Source of the DNA: Candidatus Enterousia sp.
GTDB lineage: Bacteria; Pseudomonadota; Alphaproteobacteria; Rs-D84
Assembly: GCA_045646605.1 (NCBI GenBank)
Contig: JAZRLA010000008.1
Span: 128,931-192,930 of the forward strand
DNA length: 64,000 nucleotides
Direction of reading: 5' to 3'
A program made the position numbers and the translations under genes. Below, piece after piece: positions 7,601-52,754 of this stretch (the first letter of the stretch is position 1; each line of letters starts with the position of its first letter). Under the pieces are notes generated by a model, which was not told the origin of the DNA, made no database searches, and saw only the letters and a list, made by a program, of their open reading frames with translations.

Positions 7601-8191
7601 TCAATCCCTTTTCGGTTTGTAAACGATTCGGTTTTGGTTCATGTAATCGCGCAGGACTGATTCGCCATGTTCGGGTTCGATATTGCCGTATACGGTGATA
7701 TTCCGGCGTTTGAATTCGTCCAGCCAATCCGGTTTGAAACCTTCGTCGAATCCGGTTATTGATTCGACGGCCCTGGACGGAACGCCGAAAAATACATGCC
7801 GAATTCCGGACCACATTATTCCGCCCAAACACATGATGCACGGTTCAGCCGTCACATACAGCGACAGGTTGTGTCCCGATAAATCGTATGTGTGCAGTAA
7901 TTCTTCGGCGTCGCGTATGGCGTTCATTTCGGCGTGGTTGTGACTGCAATTCATGGAAACCACGCTGTTTGCGGCGCGTGCGATTTGATTGCCGTCCGCG
8001 TCATAAATCGCGGCTAAGAACGGCCCATGTCCGCGTGCGATATAGTTCGGCAATTCGTCGTATAATTCAGTGATGATTTTTTTTGCGTGCGCAAGTTTGC
8101 GTGCATCGATTTTTTCATTCGCAATTATGTTGTCTGTATTTTGCATTTTTTGCCCCCGTAATCTTTGTGATAATTTTACGATTCGGTGCAT
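7601..8191 (-). CDS. tadA: CMP/dCMP-type zinc deaminase (TadA/GuaD-like) with N-terminal extension
   Basis: Motifs HAEMNAIRDAEE and PCIMCLGGI (H-A-E ... PC..C zinc site). 196 aa. The first ~25 codons plus upstream region are duplicated at 9290-9414. Confidence 0.65.
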   Translation of the reverse strand: MHRIVKLSQRLRGQKMQNTDNIIANEKIDARKLAHAKKIITELYDELPNYIARGHGPFLAAIYDADGNQIARAANSVVSMNCSHNHAEMNAIRDAEELLHTYDLSGHNLSLYVTAEPCIMCLGGIMWSGIRHVFFGVPSRAVESITGFDEGFKPDWLDEFKRRNITVYGNIEPEHGESVLRDYMNQNRIVYKPKRD

Positions 8192-8241
8192 AAAATCGCA
8201 AGTGATTTTGATAAAACCGATTCGGTGATGGGTATTTTTTA
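8118..8241. repeat. 124-bp direct repeat copy A (tadA 5' end plus promoter region)
   Basis: Near-identical to 9290-9414, with 2 differences. Confidence 0.85.
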
Positions 8242-8556
8242 CGAAATATTATGAGTGGTGCGTTGTTTTCGGATGTATTTAGTTGATATCGGTTGTTTTA
8301 TATTGTATAATTTTCTTGAATCCGATGCAAATCGGGTTTGGGGTTGTAGAAAGCCCACTTCATTCGGTGCGAAAGCATCGTAATTGTTTATTTTCGGTGC
8401 TTTTTGCATCGTTTGCCCCCAGCCAGAATGGTTGGGGAGCTGTTGGTGTATATATGAAGGCCACAGAATCAATAATGAAGTGATTTTCTAACTCCCCAAC
8501 CGTCAATTTATTGGCGGTTTTATGTAATAAATATAAAACATTAAAAGGAGAATGTT

Positions 8557-9219
8557 ATGAAAAATAATACTTTGTTTTCAGTAATAGGTTGTGTTTCTGC
8601 TGTTGTTATGTGTGAATCTGCGAAAGCAGGTTCGAATATTAGACCATATATTGGTTTAAATTTTACATATGCGCATGCAAATTTAAATGATGAACTTGGG
8701 GATTTAGCTAGTTATATTTCGGGATATGATTTTGGAACCGATGATTTAATTAACCCTAATACGGTTGGTTTTACTGCTAATATTGGTGCACAGTTTAATA
8801 AATATTTGGGTGCAGAGTTGTTTTTGAATTATACGGCATCAACAGCCGAGGTGTCTTTTTATGATAATTATGCAACAGTAGTTGCAACAATGAAAAACAA
8901 TGGTTCTTCTTTTGGAATTGGCGCGGATGTTATTGGAAGTTTACAAATTTCTGATAGCGATTTTTCTATGTTGGGTTCTATTGGGGGTGGATACTATAAT
9001 TTTAAATTAAAAGTAAATTATGAGGATTATTTGTATAAATATAGTGATAGTGGAAATGAGAAACATTTTGGTTTTCGTTTGGGAATCGGGGGCCAATATG
9101 CATTCACTGATAATTTCGCAGCACGTACACTGGTTCGATATGTCATTATAAATTCTGACGAACAAGATCTTATAAAAGGGATGTTGGATTGGTCGATTGG
9201 TCTAAAATGTACGTTTTAA
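8557..9219 (+). CDS. outer-membrane beta-barrel protein (OmpW/Opa-like, ends in Phe)
   Basis: Signal peptide. Alternating hydrophobic beta-strand pattern. C-terminal ...GLKCTF. RBS aaaaggagaa. Confidence 0.6.
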   Translation: MKNNTLFSVIGCVSAVVMCESAKAGSNIRPYIGLNFTYAHANLNDELGDLASYISGYDFGTDDLINPNTVGFTANIGAQFNKYLGAELFLNYTASTAEVSFYDNYATVVATMKNNGSSFGIGADVIGSLQISDSDFSMLGSIGGGYYNFKLKVNYEDYLYKYSDSGNEKHFGFRLGIGGQYAFTDNFAARTLVRYVIINSDEQDLIKGMLDWSIGLKCTF

Positions 9220-9228
9220 TATTTTTGT

Positions 9229-9258
9229 ACCCGCCGTTCGGCGGGTATAATGTTTTTT
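9229..9258 (+). terminator. putative rho-independent terminator after omp gene
   Basis: Hairpin acccgcc-gttc-ggcgggt followed by a T-run. Confidence 0.45.
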
Positions 9259-9273
9259 CTATGGAAGAGGCGC

Positions 9274-9289
9274 GGGGCGCACGGATTCG
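9274..9289 (-). other. 16-nt exact copy of tRNA-Gln 3' end (att-like direct repeat)
   Basis: ggggcgcacggattcg is identical to 15663-15680, the 3' end of the minus-strand tRNA-Gln, in the same orientation. Confidence 0.6.
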
Positions 9290-9414
9290 TTCGCAATTAT
9301 GTTGTCTGTATTTCGCATTTTTTTGCCCCCGTAATCTTTGTGATAATTTTACGATTCGGTGCATAAAATCGCAAGTGATTTTGATAAAACCGATTCGGTG
9401 ATGGGTATTTTTTA
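9290..9414. repeat. 124-bp direct repeat copy B
   Basis: Matches 8118-8241. Confidence 0.85.
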
Positions 9415-9992: not shown

Positions 9993-10895
9993 ATGTCAAC
10001 ACTAAAAACAAAAATAATTTTATTGAAAGAATTATTGGCACTAAAAGAGGTTGTTGATAAGGGCAGTATTCAAATCGCCGCGGGTGAAAACGGTATCAAA
10101 AATTCTAATCTGTCGCAAATGATTAGGAATTTAGAACATAGGTTTCATACTAAACTTATCAACAGGGGCGCGAGTGGCAGTTTACCAACGAATTCTGCGC
10201 AACTTATATATAATGATATATGTGCGATAGAAGAAATGCTTGGTAAAATTTCCGAAAATTTTGTCGATATGGATGCGCTGTCTGGGTCTATGTCTATATG
10301 GACCGAAGAAGGTCTGATTGGCAGTTATATTATGAAAGATTTGTCCGAATTCTATGCGAAATATCCAAAGATTCGTTTGGAATTGTTCATGCGCAAAGAA
10401 CCTGATATATCCACAATGGATATTTTAATTATTAAACCGAAATTGCATCCGAATATTCATGGAACGGTTTTGTTTAAGTTTAAAACGCACTTGAAGTTTT
10501 ATGCCAGTAAAAAATATCTTGAATTGCGTGGCGTTCCGAAAAATATAAATGATTTGTTGGAAAATCATGATTTGTGCATGGTTTATCGGTATATGAATTT
10601 GCCGGAATATCAAAGTATTATAAAACGCGCGAAACATTTGAATACTACATCCGATTCGTTGGCGTTGATATACCGGTTGGTTAGTGATGGTGACGGTATC
10701 ACGGTTTTTCCGTCGTGGTTCCAAGAAAGTAATGAAAATCTTGTTTGTTTGGATAAATTAAATTTTGAATATGAAATGGAAACGCAGTGTATTTGTCGCA
10801 CGGAAATCGCGGAATCACCAAAGGTCGGCGCATTCGTAAATTTCTTTATGGATTTCTGCAAGGGCCACCAAGTGCCGATTGATATTTATTTTTGA
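9993..10895 (+). CDS. LysR-family transcriptional regulator
   Basis: N-terminal LysR-type HTH (LKEVVDKGSIQIAAGENGIKNSNLSQMIRNLE..F...L) followed by a ~200-aa substrate-binding domain. Confidence 0.65.
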   Translation: MSTLKTKIILLKELLALKEVVDKGSIQIAAGENGIKNSNLSQMIRNLEHRFHTKLINRGASGSLPTNSAQLIYNDICAIEEMLGKISENFVDMDALSGSMSIWTEEGLIGSYIMKDLSEFYAKYPKIRLELFMRKEPDISTMDILIIKPKLHPNIHGTVLFKFKTHLKFYASKKYLELRGVPKNINDLLENHDLCMVYRYMNLPEYQSIIKRAKHLNTTSDSLALIYRLVSDGDGITVFPSWFQESNENLVCLDKLNFEYEMETQCICRTEIAESPKVGAFVNFFMDFCKGHQVPIDIYF

Positions 10896-11683
10896 TTGCG
10901 GACGGTGGGTGAAATACGTGGTTGTTTTATTTTGATATTGCCATAGTTGTTTTTATACAGATTCTGGGTTTGGGGTGATTTTATAACTTCCAGTGCCCTT
11001 GGTTTTATTTTTAATTGTTCGGGATGTTTTAATCCGTATGATTTTGCTGCATTTATTAGTTTTGTAATAATTTTTAATTCTAAATCATAATATTCAGGAT
11101 TGGCCGGCATATCTGGAATATCAGTCAATAATAATAAAATCAAATCACCAATATTTCTGATTTTTTTAATAGGTCGCAAATCAATTATGTAAAATTTTTT
11201 GGATTTTGGATTTAGTAATAAATTTCCTTCGCTTGGGTCTATGGTGAAATCTGTGTTTGCCAAATGATTCAAATCTTCTATTAGTTTTTTAAATGATTTT
11301 TGTGGCATAGACGCGATAATTTTCATTTTTGTTATGGCTTTTTGTTGTGCAGTCAAAATTTGTCTTGGGGTTAAAGGTGGTTCAACTAAATCATTTGTTG
11401 GAAAACCGTCAGCCTTTTTGCATACCGATAAAACAATTGTTGATTTAGATTCGTCAATTAAATTGTATATAGCTTGACCAAAATTCCTGCGCCCGTGAAC
11501 ATTTTGTGCTTTTTTTGTTTTGTAAACATTGCTTGCCAATTTGTTTCTAAATAGTGCATCATTTTTTATGTGTTTTGGCATACGCAGAACATATTTGCCT
11601 GCATCATACGTGATGGCCTCTGTTCCTTTGCCAATAGGTCTTTGTGATAAATATGTTAAAATTTCTAAATTTGTCAGTTTCAT
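10886..11683 (-). CDS. protein-kinase-fold (PKL) protein, effector-like
   Basis: G-loop-like IGKGTEAITY, Lys in VLRMPK, catalytic-loop-like DPSEGNLLLNP (D..x4..N), metal-binding YIIDL. No clear SD, so start uncertain. Confidence 0.45.
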   Translation of the reverse strand: MKLTNLEILTYLSQRPIGKGTEAITYDAGKYVLRMPKHIKNDALFRNKLASNVYKTKKAQNVHGRRNFGQAIYNLIDESKSTIVLSVCKKADGFPTNDLVEPPLTPRQILTAQQKAITKMKIIASMPQKSFKKLIEDLNHLANTDFTIDPSEGNLLLNPKSKKFYIIDLRPIKKIRNIGDLILLLLTDIPDMPANPEYYDLELKIITKLINAAKSYGLKHPEQLKIKPRALEVIKSPQTQNLYKNNYGNIKIKQPRISPTVRNQK

Positions 11684-11726
11684 GAGGTAATTATAACATG
11701 AGATGTGTGAGTTTCTATGTTTATTT

Positions 11727-11948
11727 TACTCTCTGGAATGCGCACGGGTGCCTCGATACACAATAACAAAAATCAAAAAAATCTCCGCGGGTCGATTTTT
11801 TAAGATTTTTCTAATTGTGTATTCTCGTATTGGTGCTGCGCCCGACGGGCTTGCGCCGATCCGTGCGCCCAGGAATAAATAAAAACACCAAAAAGGGTGT
11901 TTTTGTTTATTCTGGTTGAGGTGTGTGTGCAAAACGCGAGTTGAGATG
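11727..11948 (+). repeat. cassette leader repeat copy 1 (ctctctggaatgcgcacg... long hairpin ... gtgtgtgcaaaacgcgag)
   Basis: About 75% identical in blocks to 13372-13722. Contains a 20-bp-stem hairpin at 11881-11929. Confidence 0.7.
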
Positions 11949-11972
11949 GCACATGTATTTCAAATGAAGCAT

Positions 11973-13130
11973 TTAAAATGCATTACCACCATATTCCTTA
12001 ATAATACTTGCGATATCTTTTGAAACAGCTGTTCCGACAGAGATTCCACCATTCGCATTCGATGTTTCTGGACTGATGGAAATTCCTTTGCCTAACATAT
12101 CTCCAACCAATCCATCGTTTGAACGCACAAATGGTTGAATTGCGGTAGCGATTTGTTTTTCTAAGTTTGGATTTCTAGCATTTGTATAAATAGTTACAGG
12201 GTCATGTCGCGATAATATTTCATCGTAAAAATTCGTTTTGGGAAATTTGTAAGAATTAATATATCTTCCCCCATCTTTAATCAAAAAGTCATCTAAAACT
12301 TTAATTAAATCTTTTGTGACACGAACATTCAGACTGATATGAAAACCATTCGGATTACCAGAATCAATAACAGGGGTTTCTGTATTACCGCCACAAGATC
12401 GGAACCAAGTCCAATTTTGCATTCCATGCATGTTTATATGTCTACCTTGTGGCCATTGTTTAGAACACGATGCTAAAGCATAATCAAAGGCCTCTTCAAA
12501 TTCTTTTTGCGAGACATCTGTATATTCTCCATCTTGCTTGTAACGCAACATCCTGTATATCATATCCTCATCAGTCGGGCTTTCAGACCGAAGGATATTC
12601 AATATCGTTACCGTTGATAAATTTGGATAGTTTTGTTGGATAATTTCAATTAATTTGTTTTCCAGTTTTTCTCGCCCATTTGCAAAAACACTTATTTTAT
12701 CCATAGGTCTGCTGGCTTTTGTGAACCAATAGTACATAGATCCATTTTGCATATAAGGGACCAGCTGAACACCAATTTCAATTAAAGATTTATTCAACTG
12801 TGCCCATTCTTCTTTTGTCAATCGCGAGTCAGGCAAACCTGTTGTTTCGCCAGTGGCCAAAAAATTATTTAAATATTTTTCAAAATTTTTACTAGCACGC
12901 TTACGTAAATCATTAACAGAACCTAATTTTGCAAACCAATAGTATAACACACCTTTATCTGTACCGGGTATCAATACAACACCTTGGGAAGATAACTCTG
13001 TGTTTAATTGTTTCCATTCGGCATCGTTTAATCTTTCTCCAGGCAAACCTACGGTCTCCCCTTTAGTCAAAAAATTACTTAAATATTTTTCAAAACTTTG
13101 GCTGGCACGTTTACGCAAATTGTTATCCAT
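11973..13130 (-). CDS. hypothetical protein with two N-terminal ~66-aa tandem repeats and a ~250-aa C-terminal domain (effector-like)
   Basis: Repeat units NLRKRASQSFEKYLSNFLTKGETVGLP...YYWFAK and DLRKRASKNFEKYLNNFLATGETTGLP...YYWFTK. RBS aaagga. Confidence 0.55.
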   Translation of the reverse strand: MDNNLRKRASQSFEKYLSNFLTKGETVGLPGERLNDAEWKQLNTELSSQGVVLIPGTDKGVLYYWFAKLGSVNDLRKRASKNFEKYLNNFLATGETTGLPDSRLTKEEWAQLNKSLIEIGVQLVPYMQNGSMYYWFTKASRPMDKISVFANGREKLENKLIEIIQQNYPNLSTVTILNILRSESPTDEDMIYRMLRYKQDGEYTDVSQKEFEEAFDYALASCSKQWPQGRHINMHGMQNWTWFRSCGGNTETPVIDSGNPNGFHISLNVRVTKDLIKVLDDFLIKDGGRYINSYKFPKTNFYDEILSRHDPVTIYTNARNPNLEKQIATAIQPFVRSNDGLVGDMLGKGISISPETSNANGGISVGTAVSKDIASIIKEYGGNAF

Positions 13131-13214
13131 AAGAATATCCTTTCTTTACCATGCGTAATTTTATCATGATATATTTGAGAAAACAACTTCTTTTCGCCCA
13201 CACACCACAACCAC

Positions 13215-13236
13215 ATCGAATGAAAATGATACCTAG
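13215..13236 (+). repeat. terminal motif cgcccacacaccacaaccacat, copy 1
   Basis: Also present at 15112-15133. Inverted variants occur at 13697-13722 and 11915-11945. Confidence 0.7.
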
Positions 13237-13290
13237 AGCAAATTTTGATTAGTTTTATAAGCTTATTGTTGGTTCGAATGTTTTTAGTGA

Positions 13291-13352
13291 TTTATAAGTA
13301 GTTCGAAAGCGTGTTTCAAAAGACAAAAAATCGAAATTTTAACTTTCGAACT
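13291..13352. repeat. hairpin element tagttcgaaag...ctttcgaact, copy 1
   Basis: Second copy at 15552-15603. A solitary half-site sits at about 15190. Confidence 0.6.
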
Positions 13353-13371
13353 CATGAAAATTTAATTTTTT

Positions 13372-13722
13372 TTGCTCTCTGGAATGCGCACGAGACCTTG
13401 ATAAACAATAACCAACCGCAGGGCAAAAACTCTATTAAAAATATCCGTTTTTGCGCGGTTGCTAATTGTTCATCTGCGTATTGGGCATGCGCTCTTACGG
13501 GCTCTGACCGATCCGTGCGCGGGGCGCACAGGATTCGCTCGGTCGGCTTTGCCGACACTGCGCGCAACCCGTGACGATTTGGCTACGCTTTGCTTGCCAA
13601 ATCTACTTGGTTTCGAACCCGCAACAAAGTTGCGGATGGCGACCCGTGGCCCCAACCAAAAATTAAACCGGCAAAAGCCGGTTGAATTTTTGGTTGTGGG
13701 GTGTGGGCGAAACGCGAGCTGA
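13372..13722 (+). repeat. cassette leader repeat copy 2 (extended, GC-rich, many hairpins)
   Basis: Shares 5' and 3' blocks with copy 1. Has ~110 extra nt including a palindrome of the tRNA-Gln 3'-end fragment (13511-13537). Confidence 0.7.
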
Positions 13723-13783
13723 ATTATAGTTGCAAAAAATAATACAGCGGAATATAATCACAGTGTTATAAAAAGGATGGAAT

Positions 13784-14392
13784 ATGAAAAAATTTTTTGC
13801 TTTGTTATGTTTCGTTTTATCTGGTTGTGTTTCAGTTGATATGAATAAAGTCATGACTGTAAATGAAACAGATACAGAAAAATTGCCAACATTAGAAACT
13901 GTGTATATTGATGCTACATCAAAAGTACCACAATATTGGGAAGCTGGAGCCAAAGTCGTACAAAGTGGCTCTAATAGGGCAACGTTATTTTATCAACAAA
14001 TCGAAAAAAATCTGACAGACCCATATGGTGATATGCATGGTTATATAGAATTGCGCGATAATACATTTTTAAATGGTCCAGACCCTGTTAAGGTTGGAGA
14101 TGCTTGGGGTGCGATGTCTATAGTAACCCTTGGTGTTTTTAATTTGGTTGGTATGCCGGCGTATCATTTTAAACCATATAGTGAAATTAATGTTCGTGTA
14201 TTAGATAAAACAGGGAAACTTATAAAACGCTACCAAGCTAGTTTTGAAGATTCTGAATATGCAGCATTATATTGGGGGTATTCGTTGGGTGCAGGGGATG
14301 AATTATTGTTAAGAACATATAGAAAAGCACTTGATGATGTTATAGAACAAATGCAAAACGATAAAGAATTTTTATTAAAGAAATTAAAATAA
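13784..14392 (+). CDS. hypothetical lipoprotein (AT-rich cargo gene)
   Basis: Signal peptide with lipobox LSGC. RBS aaggatgg. Markedly AT-rich codon usage. Confidence 0.5.
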   Translation: MKKFFALLCFVLSGCVSVDMNKVMTVNETDTEKLPTLETVYIDATSKVPQYWEAGAKVVQSGSNRATLFYQQIEKNLTDPYGDMHGYIELRDNTFLNGPDPVKVGDAWGAMSIVTLGVFNLVGMPAYHFKPYSEINVRVLDKTGKLIKRYQASFEDSEYAALYWGYSLGAGDELLLRTYRKALDDVIEQMQNDKEFLLKKLK

Positions 14393-14417
14393 TAAGTTTG
14401 ATATTCTTATAATCGGG

Positions 14418-15098
14418 ATGGATGATATATTGTATAATTTTGATAGAGAATATGGCAATATAGTGGAGTATAATGCTAGAGATATATCTTGGTTTCATAT
14501 AGAAAAATTGAATATATTTTATACTGCTATAAATGCCAGTCTAAAAAGTTTGAAGAAAGAATTAAATCGCTTGCCGATATTGAAATCTCCTTTGGAATAT
14601 AGAACAGATTTGTTTAATGAGGTTCTAAATGAAATGAGACAGGCAGCAATAGTTGGCATATTTCATTTATGGTTACATAATTTACAAGAATTTTTGGCTA
14701 TCGGTGGTGATTTTAATAATAACAAAAAAATAAAACTCATCAGTAGTCCAACTGAAACTATTTTAAACTTGTTTAATGAAGATAAAATCTTGCAATCATT
14801 GGTTCCTGTATTAGAAAAATACGGATATTTAGTAAATACGATAAAACATGGAATAGGTCCTTCTTATAAAAAGTTGCAACATTTATATCCAGAATTTTTT
14901 GTGGAACCTGGGGAATACAAAGAAGAGCTTATTTTAGATGGTGAAAGTTATGATTCTACAATAGCTATGCCACCCTATGTTTTACAAAATCATATAGATG
15001 AATTTTACAAAACCGCAAAAAATTTCTGGCAAAATATTCCAGAAAAACTAGTTATAGATTTCACAGAAAAAATACCAAAGCGAGTTATAAAAGCATAA
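14418..15098 (+). CDS. hypothetical protein (AT-rich cargo gene)
   Basis: 226-aa ORF immediately downstream of the lipoprotein gene. No recognisable motif. Confidence 0.45.
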   Translation: MDDILYNFDREYGNIVEYNARDISWFHIEKLNIFYTAINASLKSLKKELNRLPILKSPLEYRTDLFNEVLNEMRQAAIVGIFHLWLHNLQEFLAIGGDFNNNKKIKLISSPTETILNLFNEDKILQSLVPVLEKYGYLVNTIKHGIGPSYKKLQHLYPEFFVEPGEYKEELILDGESYDSTIAMPPYVLQNHIDEFYKTAKNFWQNIPEKLVIDFTEKIPKRVIKA

Positions 15099-15111
15099 AT
15101 TTTATTCGTTT

Positions 15112-15133
15112 CGCCCACACACCACAACCACAT
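15112..15133 (+). repeat. terminal motif cgcccacacaccacaaccacat, copy 2
   Basis: Identical 22-mer to 13215-13236. Confidence 0.7.
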
Positions 15134-15247
15134 TGAATATAAATACTAAATATAGCGGTTTTAGGTTGGTTTTCTTTCGTTTTTATTAGTTCGAAAGTTT
15201 TTGAATGTCTTGATTTTTATAAATTGTATCCGTATACTCCAATTGTG

Positions 15248-15504
15248 CTTGTCAGAGAGTTGGTTCTTTGCTTGAAACACATTATTTTAGTCAGGACAAC
15301 AGATGGCGACAATAATGTTGTTATCGAGTACATGGTGAACTTTAATTCACCTGAATAAAAAGGACTCAAAATGAGTACAATAAAAAGGGCTAGAAGCGCT
15401 GTCAATGGTAGATTCGTACCAATGAAAGTGGCTCAAAAGCAGCCAAAAACTCATGTTGTTGAAACTATAAAGCGGAAGTAAACAACATAATTCTCTCTGA
15501 CAGG
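15248..15504. repeat. miniature element bounded by 12-bp inverted repeats (cttgtcagagag / ctctctgacagg)
   Basis: Arms match 11/12 and lie 233 bp apart. They enclose a 36-codon sORF. Confidence 0.45.
15371..15481 (+). CDS. possible small basic protein (36 aa, MSTIKRARSAVNGRFVPMKVAQKQPKTHVVETIKRK)
   Basis: sORF with RBS-like aaagga. Below the ORF-track cutoff. Speculative. Confidence 0.2.
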   Translation: MSTIKRARSAVNGRFVPMKVAQKQPKTHVVETIKRK

Positions 15505-15551
15505 TGCATTATACCATAAATTATGACAAAAATATACAGTTATTTTTAATA

Positions 15552-15603
15552 GTTCGAAAGTGTTAGTAAGAACGCTGTTTCCCTAAATTAAACTTTCGAA
15601 CTT
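15552..15603. repeat. hairpin element tagttcgaaag...ctttcgaact, copy 2
   Basis: Homolog of 13291-13352. Confidence 0.6.
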
Positions 15604-15621
15604 GCCAAACTCTTGTATTCT

Positions 15622-15652
15622 GAACAAAAAATGCTCTGAAGAGCATTTTGTT
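15622..15652 (-). terminator. terminator of tRNA-Gln (perfect palindrome aaaatgctc-tgaa-gagcatttt)
   Basis: 22-nt palindrome followed on the minus strand by a T-run, directly 3' of the tRNA. Confidence 0.6.
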
Positions 15653-15657
15653 AACTT

Positions 15658-15731
15658 TGGTTGGGGCGCACGGATTCGAACCATGATAAAGAGAACCAAA
15701 ATCTCTTGTCCTACCATTAGACGACACCCCA
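15658..15731 (-). tRNA. tRNA-Gln (anticodon UUG), CCA encoded
   Basis: Manual cloverleaf: acceptor UGGGGUG/CGCCCCA, D-arm, anticodon loop UUUUGGU (UUG), T-arm CAUGG-UUCGAAU-CCGUG, discriminator A, CCA. Resembles E. coli tRNA-Gln. Confidence 0.85.
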
Positions 15732-25023: not shown

Positions 25024-25902
25024 TTACTTATCAAAATCCAGTTCTTTAATCTTTTCTGCGCGCGGGGTGATTTTGCCGATTGATGTTTGCATTTGTTCCA
25101 AATCGGTTTGTGTCATTGCAAAGTGGCTTTGTACCCGCGCCGCGCGGTCGGCAAGGCGCGAAAGGTCTGTCAGCAACATATCGAGTTCATGTTTAATCTG
25201 GCCCGCGACGCGTTTGATTTTTATGTCCGACAGCACCGCGCGAATTGTGTTCAGTGTCGCCCAAAGTGTCGCCGGTGAAACGATAAAAACTTTTCGGCGT
25301 GCGGCGTATTCTATGGCGCCCGGGAATTCGCGGTGTAATGTTTCAAATATAGATTCAGATGCGATGAACATCATTGCAACCTCGGCCGTTTTGCCGGGTA
25401 TAATGTATTTTTCCGCGATTGCGTCAATATGCTTGCGCACGTCCAATTCAAATTGCTTGCGATATAGTTCCGGGTTGTCGCCGTTCATCATATGATTGTA
25501 TGATTCCAATGGAAATTTACTGTCGATAATCATGTCGCCCGGCGGATAGGGCAGGCGGATTATGCAATCGGGCCGCACGCCTGTATCCAACACACTTTGA
25601 AACGCGTATGTTTCGGGCGGCATAATGTCGGCGATTAAATCCTCTAGTTGTCGTTCGCCGAATGTGCCGCGTGCCTGTTTATTGCCCATAAGGATGTTTT
25701 TGAAATTCGCAATATCTGAACTGATGTTTTTAAGTTCGATTGCATTTTGCGACAGTGCGCCAAGCCGTTCAGAAAGCCGTTCGCGCAGGCGGGCGTTGTC
25801 TTCGCGTAGTGCCGACATATCCATTTTTGCCGGCCGCATCAGCAGCGCGCCCAGCATGATGATTATAACCGCGCACATCGCAATCAAAATATAAGTTGTC
25901 AT
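25024..25902 (-). CDS. rmuC: DNA recombination protein RmuC-like
   Basis: N-terminal TM. Coiled coil with DNARLRERLSERL. C-terminal RmuC-like region. Start trimmed to MTTYIL (RBS aagga). Confidence 0.6.
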   Translation of the reverse strand: MTTYILIAMCAVIIIMLGALLMRPAKMDMSALREDNARLRERLSERLGALSQNAIELKNISSDIANFKNILMGNKQARGTFGERQLEDLIADIMPPETYAFQSVLDTGVRPDCIIRLPYPPGDMIIDSKFPLESYNHMMNGDNPELYRKQFELDVRKHIDAIAEKYIIPGKTAEVAMMFIASESIFETLHREFPGAIEYAARRKVFIVSPATLWATLNTIRAVLSDIKIKRVAGQIKHELDMLLTDLSRLADRAARVQSHFAMTQTDLEQMQTSIGKITPRAEKIKELDFDK

Positions 25903-25945
25903 TTGGAATTCCTTTGCTATCATTTTATTATAAAAGGATTTAGAT

Positions 25946-26446
25946 ATGTTGCAAATGAAACTTTGTGGCGATTTGGTGTTGCGGGAAAAATGTGCGCCCG
26001 TGGATGACATAACGCCGGAAATTTTAGAAATTATGGACGAAATGGTTAAAATGATGGAGGAGCAAAAAGGGGTTGGCCTTGCCGCGCCCCAGGTTGGCGT
26101 GTCAAAGCGTTTTTTGGTTATGAAAAATCCGTCCAATGATAAAATTATGAAACTGATAAATCCGGTGATTTTATCGCGGTCGTCCGAAACCGTCGTTAAA
26201 GAAGAGGGGTGTCTTTCGGTGTTGGGACCTGATGGGTTGCCGGTTTATGCTGATGTTGAACGGCCTGCAAAGGTTACGGTTCAATGGACTGATATAGATG
26301 GCAAACAAAACGTTACCGAAATGTCTGGTTTTCGTGCGCGGATTGTGCAACATGAAACAGACCATTTGGATGGAATTTTGTTTATTGACTATCTGTCACC
26401 GGTAAAGCGGGAAATGGTTATGCGCAAGGTAAGGCGACGTAAATGA
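25946..26446 (+). CDS. def: peptide deformylase
   Basis: Motifs GVGLAAPQVG, EGCLSV, HETDHLDG. Confidence 0.9.
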   Translation: MLQMKLCGDLVLREKCAPVDDITPEILEIMDEMVKMMEEQKGVGLAAPQVGVSKRFLVMKNPSNDKIMKLINPVILSRSSETVVKEEGCLSVLGPDGLPVYADVERPAKVTVQWTDIDGKQNVTEMSGFRARIVQHETDHLDGILFIDYLSPVKREMVMRKVRRRK

Positions 26447-51624: not shown

Positions 51625-51680
51625 ATTGCATAGTGTTTTTTTTGCGGTATCATACGGGGCGTATAGCAAAGGAAGTTATT

Positions 51681-52754
51681 ATGGCAAAGAAAGAAACGGC
51701 GGCCGTGGGTGCGGGCGCAAAAAATCCGGCACTTGAATCGGCACTTGCGCAAATTCAAAAGCAATTCGGCAAAGAAGCAATTATGAAAATGGGCGATGGT
51801 TCGCAACAGAATATAGAGGCGATTTCTTCGGGGTCGTTGGGCCTTGATATCGCACTGGGGATTGGTGGTTATCCGCGTGGGCGTATCGTTGAAATTTATG
51901 GTCCGGAAAGTTCGGGTAAAACGACGCTTGCGTTGCATGCGGTGGCCGAAGCGCAAAAGAAAGGCGGCACGTGCGCATATATCGATGCGGAAAATGCGCT
52001 GGACCCGAGTTATGCGAAAAAATTGGGTGTTGATGTCGCAAATTTGATTATATCGCAACCTGATTCTGGGGAACAGGCGTTGGAAATTGCGGACACGCTT
52101 ATTAAATCTGGTGCGGTTGATGTTGTGGTTATTGATTCGGTTGCGGCGTTGGTGCCAAAGGCGGAACTGGAGGGCAACATCGGTGACAGTTTTGTTGGAA
52201 CGACCGCGCGACTCATGAGTCAATCACTGAAGAAACTTGCGGGGTCTGTGTCGCGCAGTAATACTTTGCTTATTTTTATCAATCAGATTCGTATGAAGAT
52301 TGGCGTGATGTTCGGAAACCCGGAGACGACCAGTGGTGGTAATGCGTTGAAATTCTATGCTTCGGTTCGTTTGGATATTCGTCGCACCGGGGCAATCAAA
52401 GATAAAGAAAATGTTATCGGAAATGAAACACGGGTAAAGGTTGTGAAAAATAAAGTCGCGCCACCTTTCCGCACTGTTGATTTCAAGATTATGTATGGCG
52501 AAGGAATTTCGCGGATAAGTGAAATCTTGGATATGGGTGTGAAATATGACTTTATCGACAAGGCCGGCAGTTTTTATTCATATAACAATGAACGCATAGG
52601 TCAGGGCGAGGCGAATGCGCGACAGTGGTTGAAAGATCATCCAGAGGCGCAGCAAGAGTTGCTTGATAAAATTATGGCGCGCGCGGGTGGTATTGCCGAA
52701 GAAATGACGACCGGGCCGTCGGATGATGAAGATGAAAGTGTGACAGAAGAATAA
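51681..52754 (+). CDS. recA: recombinase RecA
   Basis: [32 protein letters not shown]; acidic C-terminus. Start trimmed to MAKKE (RBS aaggaag). Confidence 0.95.

Follow-up and report, generated by a model that had tools for sequence, protein, structure and literature searches.

A cassette-exchange locus between LysR and tRNA-Gln in Candidatus Enterousia, apparently undescribed

Candidatus Enterousia (Rs-D84, Alphaproteobacteria) carries a hot spot of gene exchange at a position that runs from a conserved LysR gene to the gene for tRNA-Gln. The stretch analysed here, referred to below as the window, comprises 64,000 nt of Candidatus Enterousia sp. (contig JAZRLA010000008.1, positions 128,931-192,930, forward strand). 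The locus is a real and recurrent cassette-exchange locus, apparently undescribed, of which the mechanism is partly resolved. The cargo segments that lie between a short site, a, and its inverse, a', are horizontally exchanged cassettes. The locus looks like an undescribed hot spot because these cassettes are almost unchanged in distantly related genomes. Besides the exchange locus itself, two structured RNAs, N and M, are put forward as new candidates with good comparative support. In genomes reduced to about 0.75-1 Mb, mobile elements are usually few. This is the size range of Ca. Enterousia and the rest of the order Rs-D84, all of which have reduced genomes (PMC12306168).

Related loci were collected by a pattern scan of one genome per species (14 loci, all from Ca. 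Enterousia or related gut/rumen Alphaproteobacteria) and by a metagenome scan with an exact 18-mer of the arm, the arms being the copies of a and a'. The genome loci and metagenome contigs, about 40 in all and denoted by L numbers, share the order LysR / a-cargo-a' / spacer / a-cargo-a' / spacer / tRNA-Gln. The full consensus order, which includes a helix-turn-helix (HTH) gene and the spacer elements t, H, N and M, is HTH - LysR / a-cargo-a' / t-H-(N, M or nothing)-terminator / a-cargo-a' / ... / tRNA-Gln - MarR - TolC - HlyD - AcrB. Arrays of differing length and content exist among these loci. An earlier, sequence-only reading of the window had described two tandem units, each with a leader, a variable cargo and a terminal 22-mer. 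The motifs it listed are all present, far beyond chance, and they are not limited to two local copies, since they recur in 14 species-representative genomes and in dozens of metagenome contigs. The features of the array are collected in Table 1.

Table 1. Features of the array and associated elements in the window (feature, position, strand, remarks)
Feature	Position	Strand	Remarks
Stray tRNA-Gln 3' fragment GGGGCGCACGGATTCG, 16 nt	9274..9289	+	Terminates a 1.17-kb insertion with an outer-membrane-protein gene
N copy 1, hairpin variant A	11729..11868	+	cmsearch 145.7 bits; folding z-score -6.3
Terminator hairpin type X, after N copy 1	11873..11912	.	Inverted repeat I15; terminator scan 11881-11904
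Site a, cassette 1 left arm, degenerate TGGTTGAGGTGTGTGTGCAAAACGCGAGTT	11913..11942	+	Repeat D8
Cargo 1	11943..13191	-	385-aa protein, gene 11973-13130 on the minus strand; no Pfam family
Site a', cassette 1 right arm TTTCGCCCACACACCACAACCAC	13192..13214	+	Contains the 22-mer
Spacer segment t	13215..13299	+	Conserved, variable in type; holds an extra GTTCGAA box
H, paired TTCGAA boxes (hairpin or operator)	13300..13352	+	Directly upstream of N; second copy 15551-15602
N copy 2, hairpin variant B	13375..13520	+	cmsearch 168.1 bits; covariation
M, second structured module, ~130 nt	13521..13650	+	Starts with the tRNA-Gln 3'-end fragment GGGGCGCAC(A)GGATTC
Bidirectional terminator hairpin type Y	13650..13699	.	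Inverted repeat I6; scan 13666-13683 on both strands; 3' arm overlaps the start of a
Site a, cassette 2 left arm TGGTTGTGGGGTGTGGGCGAAACGCGAGCT	13691..13720	+	Inverted repeats I2, I5
Cargo 2	13721..15108	+	202-aa lipoprotein (13784-14392) and 226-aa protein (14418-15098); neither with a Pfam family
Site a', cassette 2 right arm	15109..15131	+	
Last spacer	15132..15657	+	t (to 15202), 348-bp insert (15203-15550), H (15551-15602), terminator type Z (15628-15649); without N body
tRNA-Gln (UUG)	15658..15731	-	Fixed right-hand array end; only gathering-score Rfam match in the window

Cassettes and their bounding sites

Site a, TGGTTGTGGTGTGTGGGCGAAAYGCGAGTT, forms the left boundary of each cassette, and its inverse, a', forms the right one. 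Site a consists of GTGGTTGTGGTGTGTGGGCGAAA and a conserved inner extension, YGCGAGTT; a', the reverse complement, contains the 22-mer of the earlier reading, CGCCCACACACCACAACCACAT. This 22-mer had been reported as identical at two places and is indeed exact at 13195-13216 and 15112-15133, the coordinate 13215 given for the first copy being approximately its end. The proposal that every cargo is bracketed by inverted copies of the same motif was borne out as well: such copies lie at 13688-13709 (three mismatches) and, in more degenerate form, at 11913-11936. Cargo 2 is enclosed by a 24-nt inverted repeat that is 96% complementary (13691-13714 versus 15107-15130). The arms are 23-32 bp long asymmetric inverted repeats which start with TG and finish with CA, and by their position frequencies they are much more conserved than the surrounding spacer.

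One or two genes, which may point either way, make up a self-contained cassette. The complete cassettes (n=22) measure 463-1442 nt and represent 15 cargo families. Their functions include a GNAT acetyltransferase, SAM methyltransferases, an SDR, an isochorismatase, an APH-like kinase, a peptidase S51 and nucleases; many cargo proteins have no Pfam family, and no recombinase was found among them. The reading frames described earlier in the window (385 aa on the minus strand, 202 aa and 226 aa on the plus strand) are present. Judged by their promoter-like hexamers, both cassettes appear to carry their own promoters, which speaks against the idea of a leader that serves the cargo. For cargo 2 a promoter is predicted by scan (TTGCAA-17-TATAAT, 13730-13758); for cargo 1 an apparent promoter, with hexamers picked out by eye, lies just inside the right arm and was not confirmed by the promoter scan. 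Exact-protein look-ups gave nothing for the 385-aa protein, the 226-aa protein and LysR, and returned matches for the 202-aa protein and for homologues of the 385-aa protein. The latter protein has a 210-nt tandem repeat unit with 72% identity (12793-12915 and 13003-13125), and a 96%-identical homologue in other genomes (P0002, 315 aa) has one unit fewer; more distant homologues, in L097 and L099, do not lie between a and a'. An invertible segment of the phase-variation type was considered and rejected, as each cargo family has one orientation relative to the asymmetric arms and no inverted matches were seen among the 22 cassettes.

Both cassettes of the window are found nearly identical (97-99.6%) in genomes whose flanking genes are just 68-77% identical. 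The DNA of cassette 2 is 93-99.6% identical in L059, L061 and L085-L092, and its exact 202-aa lipoprotein was recorded on 13 contigs. In L087 the segment corresponding to 13654-15137 has 99.4% identity, with TolC and AcrB at 68-69%, and in L085 the segment 13640-15672 has 98.1% identity in a backbone of 76%. For cassette 1, the DNA of L093-L096 is 97-99% identical over 11913-13215, less one 210-nt repeat unit, with TolC at 68%. Gain, loss and exchange of cassettes, for which the sequence-only reading had suggested a comparison of related strains, were all seen in this cross-genome comparison.

The junctions of cassette 2 indicate what it is that moves. The flanks of this cassette vary between genomes, with at least six kinds on the left and at least six on the right, the right ones being different t types (at least six t variants stand downstream of cargo 2 in other genomes). 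On the left it is preceded by N-M-terminator Y, by N(A)-terminator Y, by another M-terminator Y, by a protein gene-terminator Y', by terminator W, or by a deaminase gene without the core of site a. At the level of single residues, the right-hand limit of identity falls within a' and the left-hand limit at or within a, and a break of the same kind is seen in L044/L045. The moving unit is the DNA between two inverted arms, and not a segment running from leader to 22-mer as had been suggested.

The main rival explanation of these junctions is plain RecA-dependent homologous recombination in short islands that have stayed nearly identical between species, namely a/a', N, the terminators and the tRNA. 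Since DNA coming in from other Enterousia species could recombine only in such islands, the variable genes between them would be swapped, and a/a' would be conserved for another reason, for instance insulating transcription or protein binding. In line with this, the window contains a RecA gene, the search for a dedicated enzyme gave none, whole spacers form part of some shared blocks (13640-15672 in the case of L085 and L091), and the left breakpoints of cassette 2 vary by pair, lying upstream of the terminator, inside a or at the inner edge of a. However, at least five independent right junctions of cassette 2 fall inside the 23-25 nt of a', while longer identical tracts (N, 140 nt; the tRNA, 75 nt) are available just beyond. 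A length of 23-32 nt is at or below the minimum efficient RecA substrate, which weighs against this rival. Homologous recombination also gives no reason for a near-invariant 23-nt sequence that occurs in inverted pairs in genomes 68% identical elsewhere. As an account of the locus we consider it unlikely, though it deserves serious attention.

Behaviour of the sites and a proposed mechanism of exchange

The arms behave as resident sites and not as ends that travel with the cargo, since the arm differs by context while the cargo remains constant. Comparison of the window with L093 shows 6 changes in the 32 nt of the left arm of cassette 1, beside a cargo that is ~97% identical, and L004 and L051 have a cargo in common with completely different arm variants. 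Matched variant arms across one cargo were observed in L004, L011, L062 and L093; in L093 both arms are of one variant, the repeat being perfect over 33 nt and imperfect on to ~62 nt. Global co-variation of the arms was examined and rejected: there is no signal over all pairs, and matched variants occur in individual loci only. All copies of a and a' found in Enterousia-type (low-GC, related) sequence, including the 64-kb window, stand in an array-type context, that is, adjoining H, N, a terminator hairpin or tRNA-Gln, and they lie between LysR and tRNA-Gln wherever the contig includes those genes. The remaining matches of the metagenome 18-mer scan fall in unrelated sequence. Inspection of the arm flanks revealed no target-site duplications at the arms and no direct repeats flanking them.

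These properties bear on the resemblance to modules bounded by miniature inverted-repeat transposable elements (MITEs), which the earlier reading had noted. A non-autonomous transposon, or mobile insertion cassette, would have a and a' as its terminal inverted repeats and a transposase encoded elsewhere. The asymmetric inverted ends of 23-32 bp (TG...CA), the absence of a transposase inside the cassettes and the matched variant arms of L004, L011, L062 and L093 would all fit. Such an element is nevertheless quite improbable: its ends should move with it, whereas here the arms change with context beside identical cargo; target-site duplications are lacking; every related copy seen, in the 64-kb window and in the related loci, lies in an array-type context at one locus; and no empty target site was seen. 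The arm contains TGTGGGCG, internal to the repeat. Tn7 termini contain TGTGGGCG. Tn7-like ends were rejected, as TGTGGGCG is internal and there is neither a 5-bp duplication nor a set of repeated subterminal sites. A phage or plasmid origin was likewise rejected: the segment 11727-15700 has no match in plasmid or phage collections, and neither motif occurs in viral contigs.

The sites are related to the tRNA gene that closes the array. The junction point is the encoded CCA end of tRNA-Gln (TGGTTG on the plus strand), and the start of a coincides exactly with the start of this CCA end in cassette-free loci. Site a begins with the tRNA terminal TGGTTG(G/T)GG, its identity to the tRNA being over after ~9 nt. 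Mimicry of the tRNA-Gln 3' end recurs in the array, namely in these first ~9 nt of a, in the closing helix P1 of N and at the start of M; an alternative inner extension of a, GGATTCGGGCT, found in L011, L051 and L057, shows the same mimicry. A third, more diverged arm type, TGGTTGGAGTGTCTTAGCGTTTCTCGAAC, occupies the same position after the terminator in L007 (4533-4570), L059 (~1100-1140) and L097 (reverse strand, ~9230); its first 9 nt equal the tRNA-Gln allele TGGTTGGAG of some species.

Such relations could suggest decayed tandem islands of a tRNA-targeting integrase, from which the integrases were lost and the cargo was left between remnant att sites. The array abuts the tRNA-Gln 3' end and a begins with TGGTTG(G/T)GG; M starts with a tRNA-Gln 3' fragment, and 19-nt direct repeats are present in L044/L050; a stray tRNA fragment lies at 9274-9289, and L005 diverges after 16 nt of the tRNA end. 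Integrase insertion, however, results in direct repeats, whereas the cassettes are flanked by inverted ones; the identity between a and the tRNA extends over only ~9 nt; one cargo occurs with many different neighbouring spacers; and no integrase was found in any array or flank examined. We regard this origin as improbable.

The best reading, which we hold with somewhat better than even confidence, is that of a site-delimited exchange of cassettes at resident recombination sites. On this reading a and a' would be recombination signal sequences resident at the locus, and genomes would exchange cargo through conservative recombination at these two sites, which are inversely oriented. The recombining enzyme would act in trans and be encoded elsewhere in the genome; the lack of target-site duplications, the lack of a nearby recombinase and the position of all related copies found at a single locus fit such an enzyme. 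An array would gain length when an incoming cassette is accompanied by a spacer copy (t-H-[N or M]-terminator), which would duplicate H, N and the terminator. The small RNA gene would then stand twice in the window because an incoming cassette brought a spacer copy with it.

Several observations weigh against the exchange at resident sites. Shared segments can pass the arms into the spacer, as the window, L085 and L091 have 13640-15672 in common; homologous recombination within the conserved spacer therefore plays a part as well. The selection of the metagenome loci by an exact 18-mer inflates the arm conservation in that subset. Over all pairs the arms do not resemble each other more across a cargo (2.59 mismatches) than across a spacer (2.44). 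Internal dyad symmetry, a property of tyrosine/serine recombinase core sites, is absent from a single a site, one strand of which is almost purely G and T. No recombinase was found in the gene tables for 6-8 kb on each side in L085-L087 and L093, nor among the window open reading frames flanking the array and ten further ones. Neither a circular intermediate, nor an empty a-a' site, nor an inverted cassette was seen in the 22 cassettes and the related loci. The window does encode RmuC, of a recombination-limiting protein family (25024-26136, minus strand), and RecA (51633-52754, plus strand).

RNA genes and spacers of the array

The "leader" of the sequence-only reading is a free-standing, strand-specific structured small RNA gene of ~140 nt, which we named N. 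Its start, the 18-mer CTCTCTGGAATGCGCACG, occurs exactly twice in 64 kb, at 11729 and 13375, where chance would give none. N is an independent gene and no part of a cassette unit: a single exact match is present in 13 of the 14 reference loci, most of them adjoining tRNA-Gln, and many spacers in other arrays are without N. In its usual context H is followed by CTCTCTGGAATGCGCACG ... CCGATCCGTGCGC and a terminator hairpin, and then at once by the converging tRNA-Gln (TGGTTGGGGCGCACGGATTCGAACC on the plus strand), so that N and tRNA-Gln stand tail-to-tail in most of the 14 reference genomes. The predicted fold is a three-way junction made of P1 (GCGCACG/CGUGCGC), a long hairpin P2 and a hairpin P3. 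A covariance check, which had been proposed for the leader, gave strong covariation on 28 copies: over 35 pairs 97.3% of the alignment cells are paired, 10 of the 35 pairs show double-sided changes, and the covariation score is 0.265 versus 0.10 in shuffles (0 of 500 reach 0.265) and at most 0.085 in slid controls. The G-U wobbles are consistent with the plus strand only. The transcript would be ~190 nt long, running on the plus strand from near CUCUCUGG to the terminator.

The likeness of the two leaders, also claimed earlier, holds in part. The two leaders align over the first ~146 nt (11729-11868 versus 13375-13520), with a further match near the 3' end that comprises the terminator and a-site, whereas the second leader carries an extra ~130 nt (13521-13650), which is M. 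The N copies differ by compensated changes in P2 and P3, and the core of copy 1 is 97-98% identical (BLASTN) to copies in L009/L010. A recent local duplication of N was ruled out, the two copies being different hairpin variants that are each nearly identical to copies in other species. The closing helix P1 pairs a copy of the tRNA-Gln 3' segment with the complement of that segment. Its 3' strand, ATCCGTGCGC (11856-11868 / 13508-13520), equals the tRNA-Gln 3' segment at 15663-15678; as ATCCGTGCGC is common to N and tRNA-Gln, cassette-free loci have a ~13-nt inverted repeat around the terminator that the two genes share. Three tandem N copies, one of them partial, lie directly between LysR and tRNA-Gln in L012 (2510-3000), without H, t, a/a' or a cassette, and this arrangement may represent the cassette-free state of the locus.

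M has homologues in at least nine other loci (L031, L047, L049, L052, L054, L075, L080, L082 and L093) and shows compensatory changes in 9 of 22 predicted pairs. A related M-type insert of a different sequence type, in L044/L050, is situated between 19-nt direct repeats of the tRNA end, which is the footprint expected of an integrase-type insertion. N resembles the small RNAs of Rfam in being a compact, terminator-ended, structured bacterial RNA beside a tRNA gene. Unlike these, N and M match no family of Rfam 15, be it at the gathering score or at an E-value up to 5 (11600-15700), where weak terminator-like matches only were obtained. ARAGORN returned tRNA-Gln alone and no tmRNA. A guide-RNA or bridge-RNA function was considered and rejected, as neither N nor M has complementarity of at least 7 nt to a/a'.

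The TTCGAA-centred hairpins that had been said to punctuate the units were found at both places (H in Table 1), two in the window where none is expected. H is located upstream of N in most relatives and is probably the promoter region of N, as suggested by the hexamers TTGACT and TATATT that relatives show at a spacing of 18-19 nt. The segment t takes part in direct repeat D2 (13188-13285 versus 15105-15202, 76%), and the type X terminator hairpin also precedes tRNA-Gln in L003/L004/L013. The arrangement of the last spacer is repeated in L085 and L091. An imperfect inverted repeat, TGTCAGAGAG ... CTCTCTGACA, encloses its 348-bp insert, which is present in both and absent from L059 and contains a basic open reading frame of 36 aa (15372-15482, MSTIKRARSAVNGRFVP...). 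H followed directly by terminator Z, without an N body, is found at 15551-15657 and also in L019, L049 and L018; if H is the promoter, the predicted product of such a unit would be a few tens of nucleotides long.

To the left of the array, an open reading frame of 265 aa (10886-11683, minus strand) separates LysR, with which it has 10 nt in common, from N copy 1, and because of this position the H that is usual upstream of N is missing there. It has no Pfam family, no DNA match in any related locus and no recognisable a/a' arms. Further upstream, 9286-9414 is a direct duplication of 8114-8241 (96 nt perfect, ~128 nt overall) that takes in the 5' end of a deaminase-like gene (7601-8191, minus strand) and the sequence upstream of that gene. 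The duplication brackets the 1.17-kb insertion (8242-9285) with the outer-membrane beta-barrel gene (8557-9219); the insertion is absent from the close relative L007.

Relation to known systems

The earlier reading had described a cassette array with variable cargo that matches no described system. This description stands, as the locus fits none of the tested definitions of integron, dif module, transposon and tRNA island; each of the readings as decayed integrase islands, non-autonomous transposon or integron conflicts with one or more of the defining features tested.

The likeness to integrons fared worse. As in integrons, small diverse genes are stacked at a hot spot between inverse core copies, cassettes are common to several species, and the cargo functions are mixed much as in chromosomal integrons. 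An integron, or a cluster of attC sites lacking integrase (CALIN), should however have attC sites and, in the first case, an integrase. No IntI-like gene lies nearby, be it within 6-8 kb in L085-L087 and L093 or among the reading frames examined in the window. By inspection, the arms CCACAAC / GTTGTGG do not fit RYYYAAC/GTTRRRY, and the segments between the arms (196-574 bp, containing promoter, RNA gene and terminator) are not attC hairpins of 57-141 bp. Moreover, unlike integron cassettes, the cassettes have their own promoters and occur in both orientations, and cargo and downstream site assort independently, a cargo not being tied to one site (at least six downstream spacers). The integron reading is largely refuted by the features examined, and we give it very little credence.

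Tycheposon arrays of Prochlorococcus, which Hackl et al. are said to have described in 2023, are reportedly tRNA-targeting integrative islands. With tRNA islands of this type the locus shares a tandem accretion at a tRNA 3' end and partial tRNA repeats (M; 9274-9289). It differs in that the cassettes have inverted rather than direct repeats, in that no integrase was seen and in the size of the units, 0.5-1.4 kb. Mobile insertion cassettes and MITE modules similarly have inverted terminal repeats around passenger genes and no transposase inside; the differences are the lack of target-site duplications, the single locus and the arms, which do not travel with the cargo.

The closest known architecture is that of the dif modules of Acinetobacter, which are bounded by pdif sites and carried on Rep_3 plasmids (PMC13141974, PMC6449649) and have been described as unique to that genus (PMC13141974). 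In both cases modules are located between short, inversely oriented sites (~28 bp in dif), two kinds of segment alternate, the same module occurs in many contexts, the sites stay with the backbone and the module has no recombinase. In contrast to dif, the sites at this locus have by inspection no 11-6-11 layout, no dyad symmetry and no TTATG-type XerD arm, the lineage's own dif not having been identified. The array lies in the chromosome, fixed to the 3' end of a tRNA gene, its alternate segments are units of promoter, small RNA gene and terminator, and no inverted cargo is present in the small sample of 22 cassettes. The host is an uncultured alphaproteobacterium with a genome below 1 Mb (PMC12306168).

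Tentatively, and with rather less than even confidence, we propose that a and a' are the sites of a previously unknown cassette-exchange system, neither integron nor Xer-dependent, in which a trans-acting recombinase would move cassettes between species. As part of the same proposal, and equally tentative, the system might be a chromosomal counterpart of the dif modules in genomes below 1 Mb, with sites derived from or mimicking the tRNA-Gln 3' end. In this proposal N and M would represent new families of RNA that might take part in the system.

Of the site types used for comparison (integron attC, dif), none matches the bounding sites, and an enzyme that acts on them, once found, could yield a new recombination system and a tool. 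The order LysR ... tRNA-Gln provides a clear marker for finding such arrays in metagenomes. If the proposal is true, a single dedicated locus at which ready-to-express genes are taken up and exchanged among species would be a main channel of gene flow in these uncultured bacteria of the gut.

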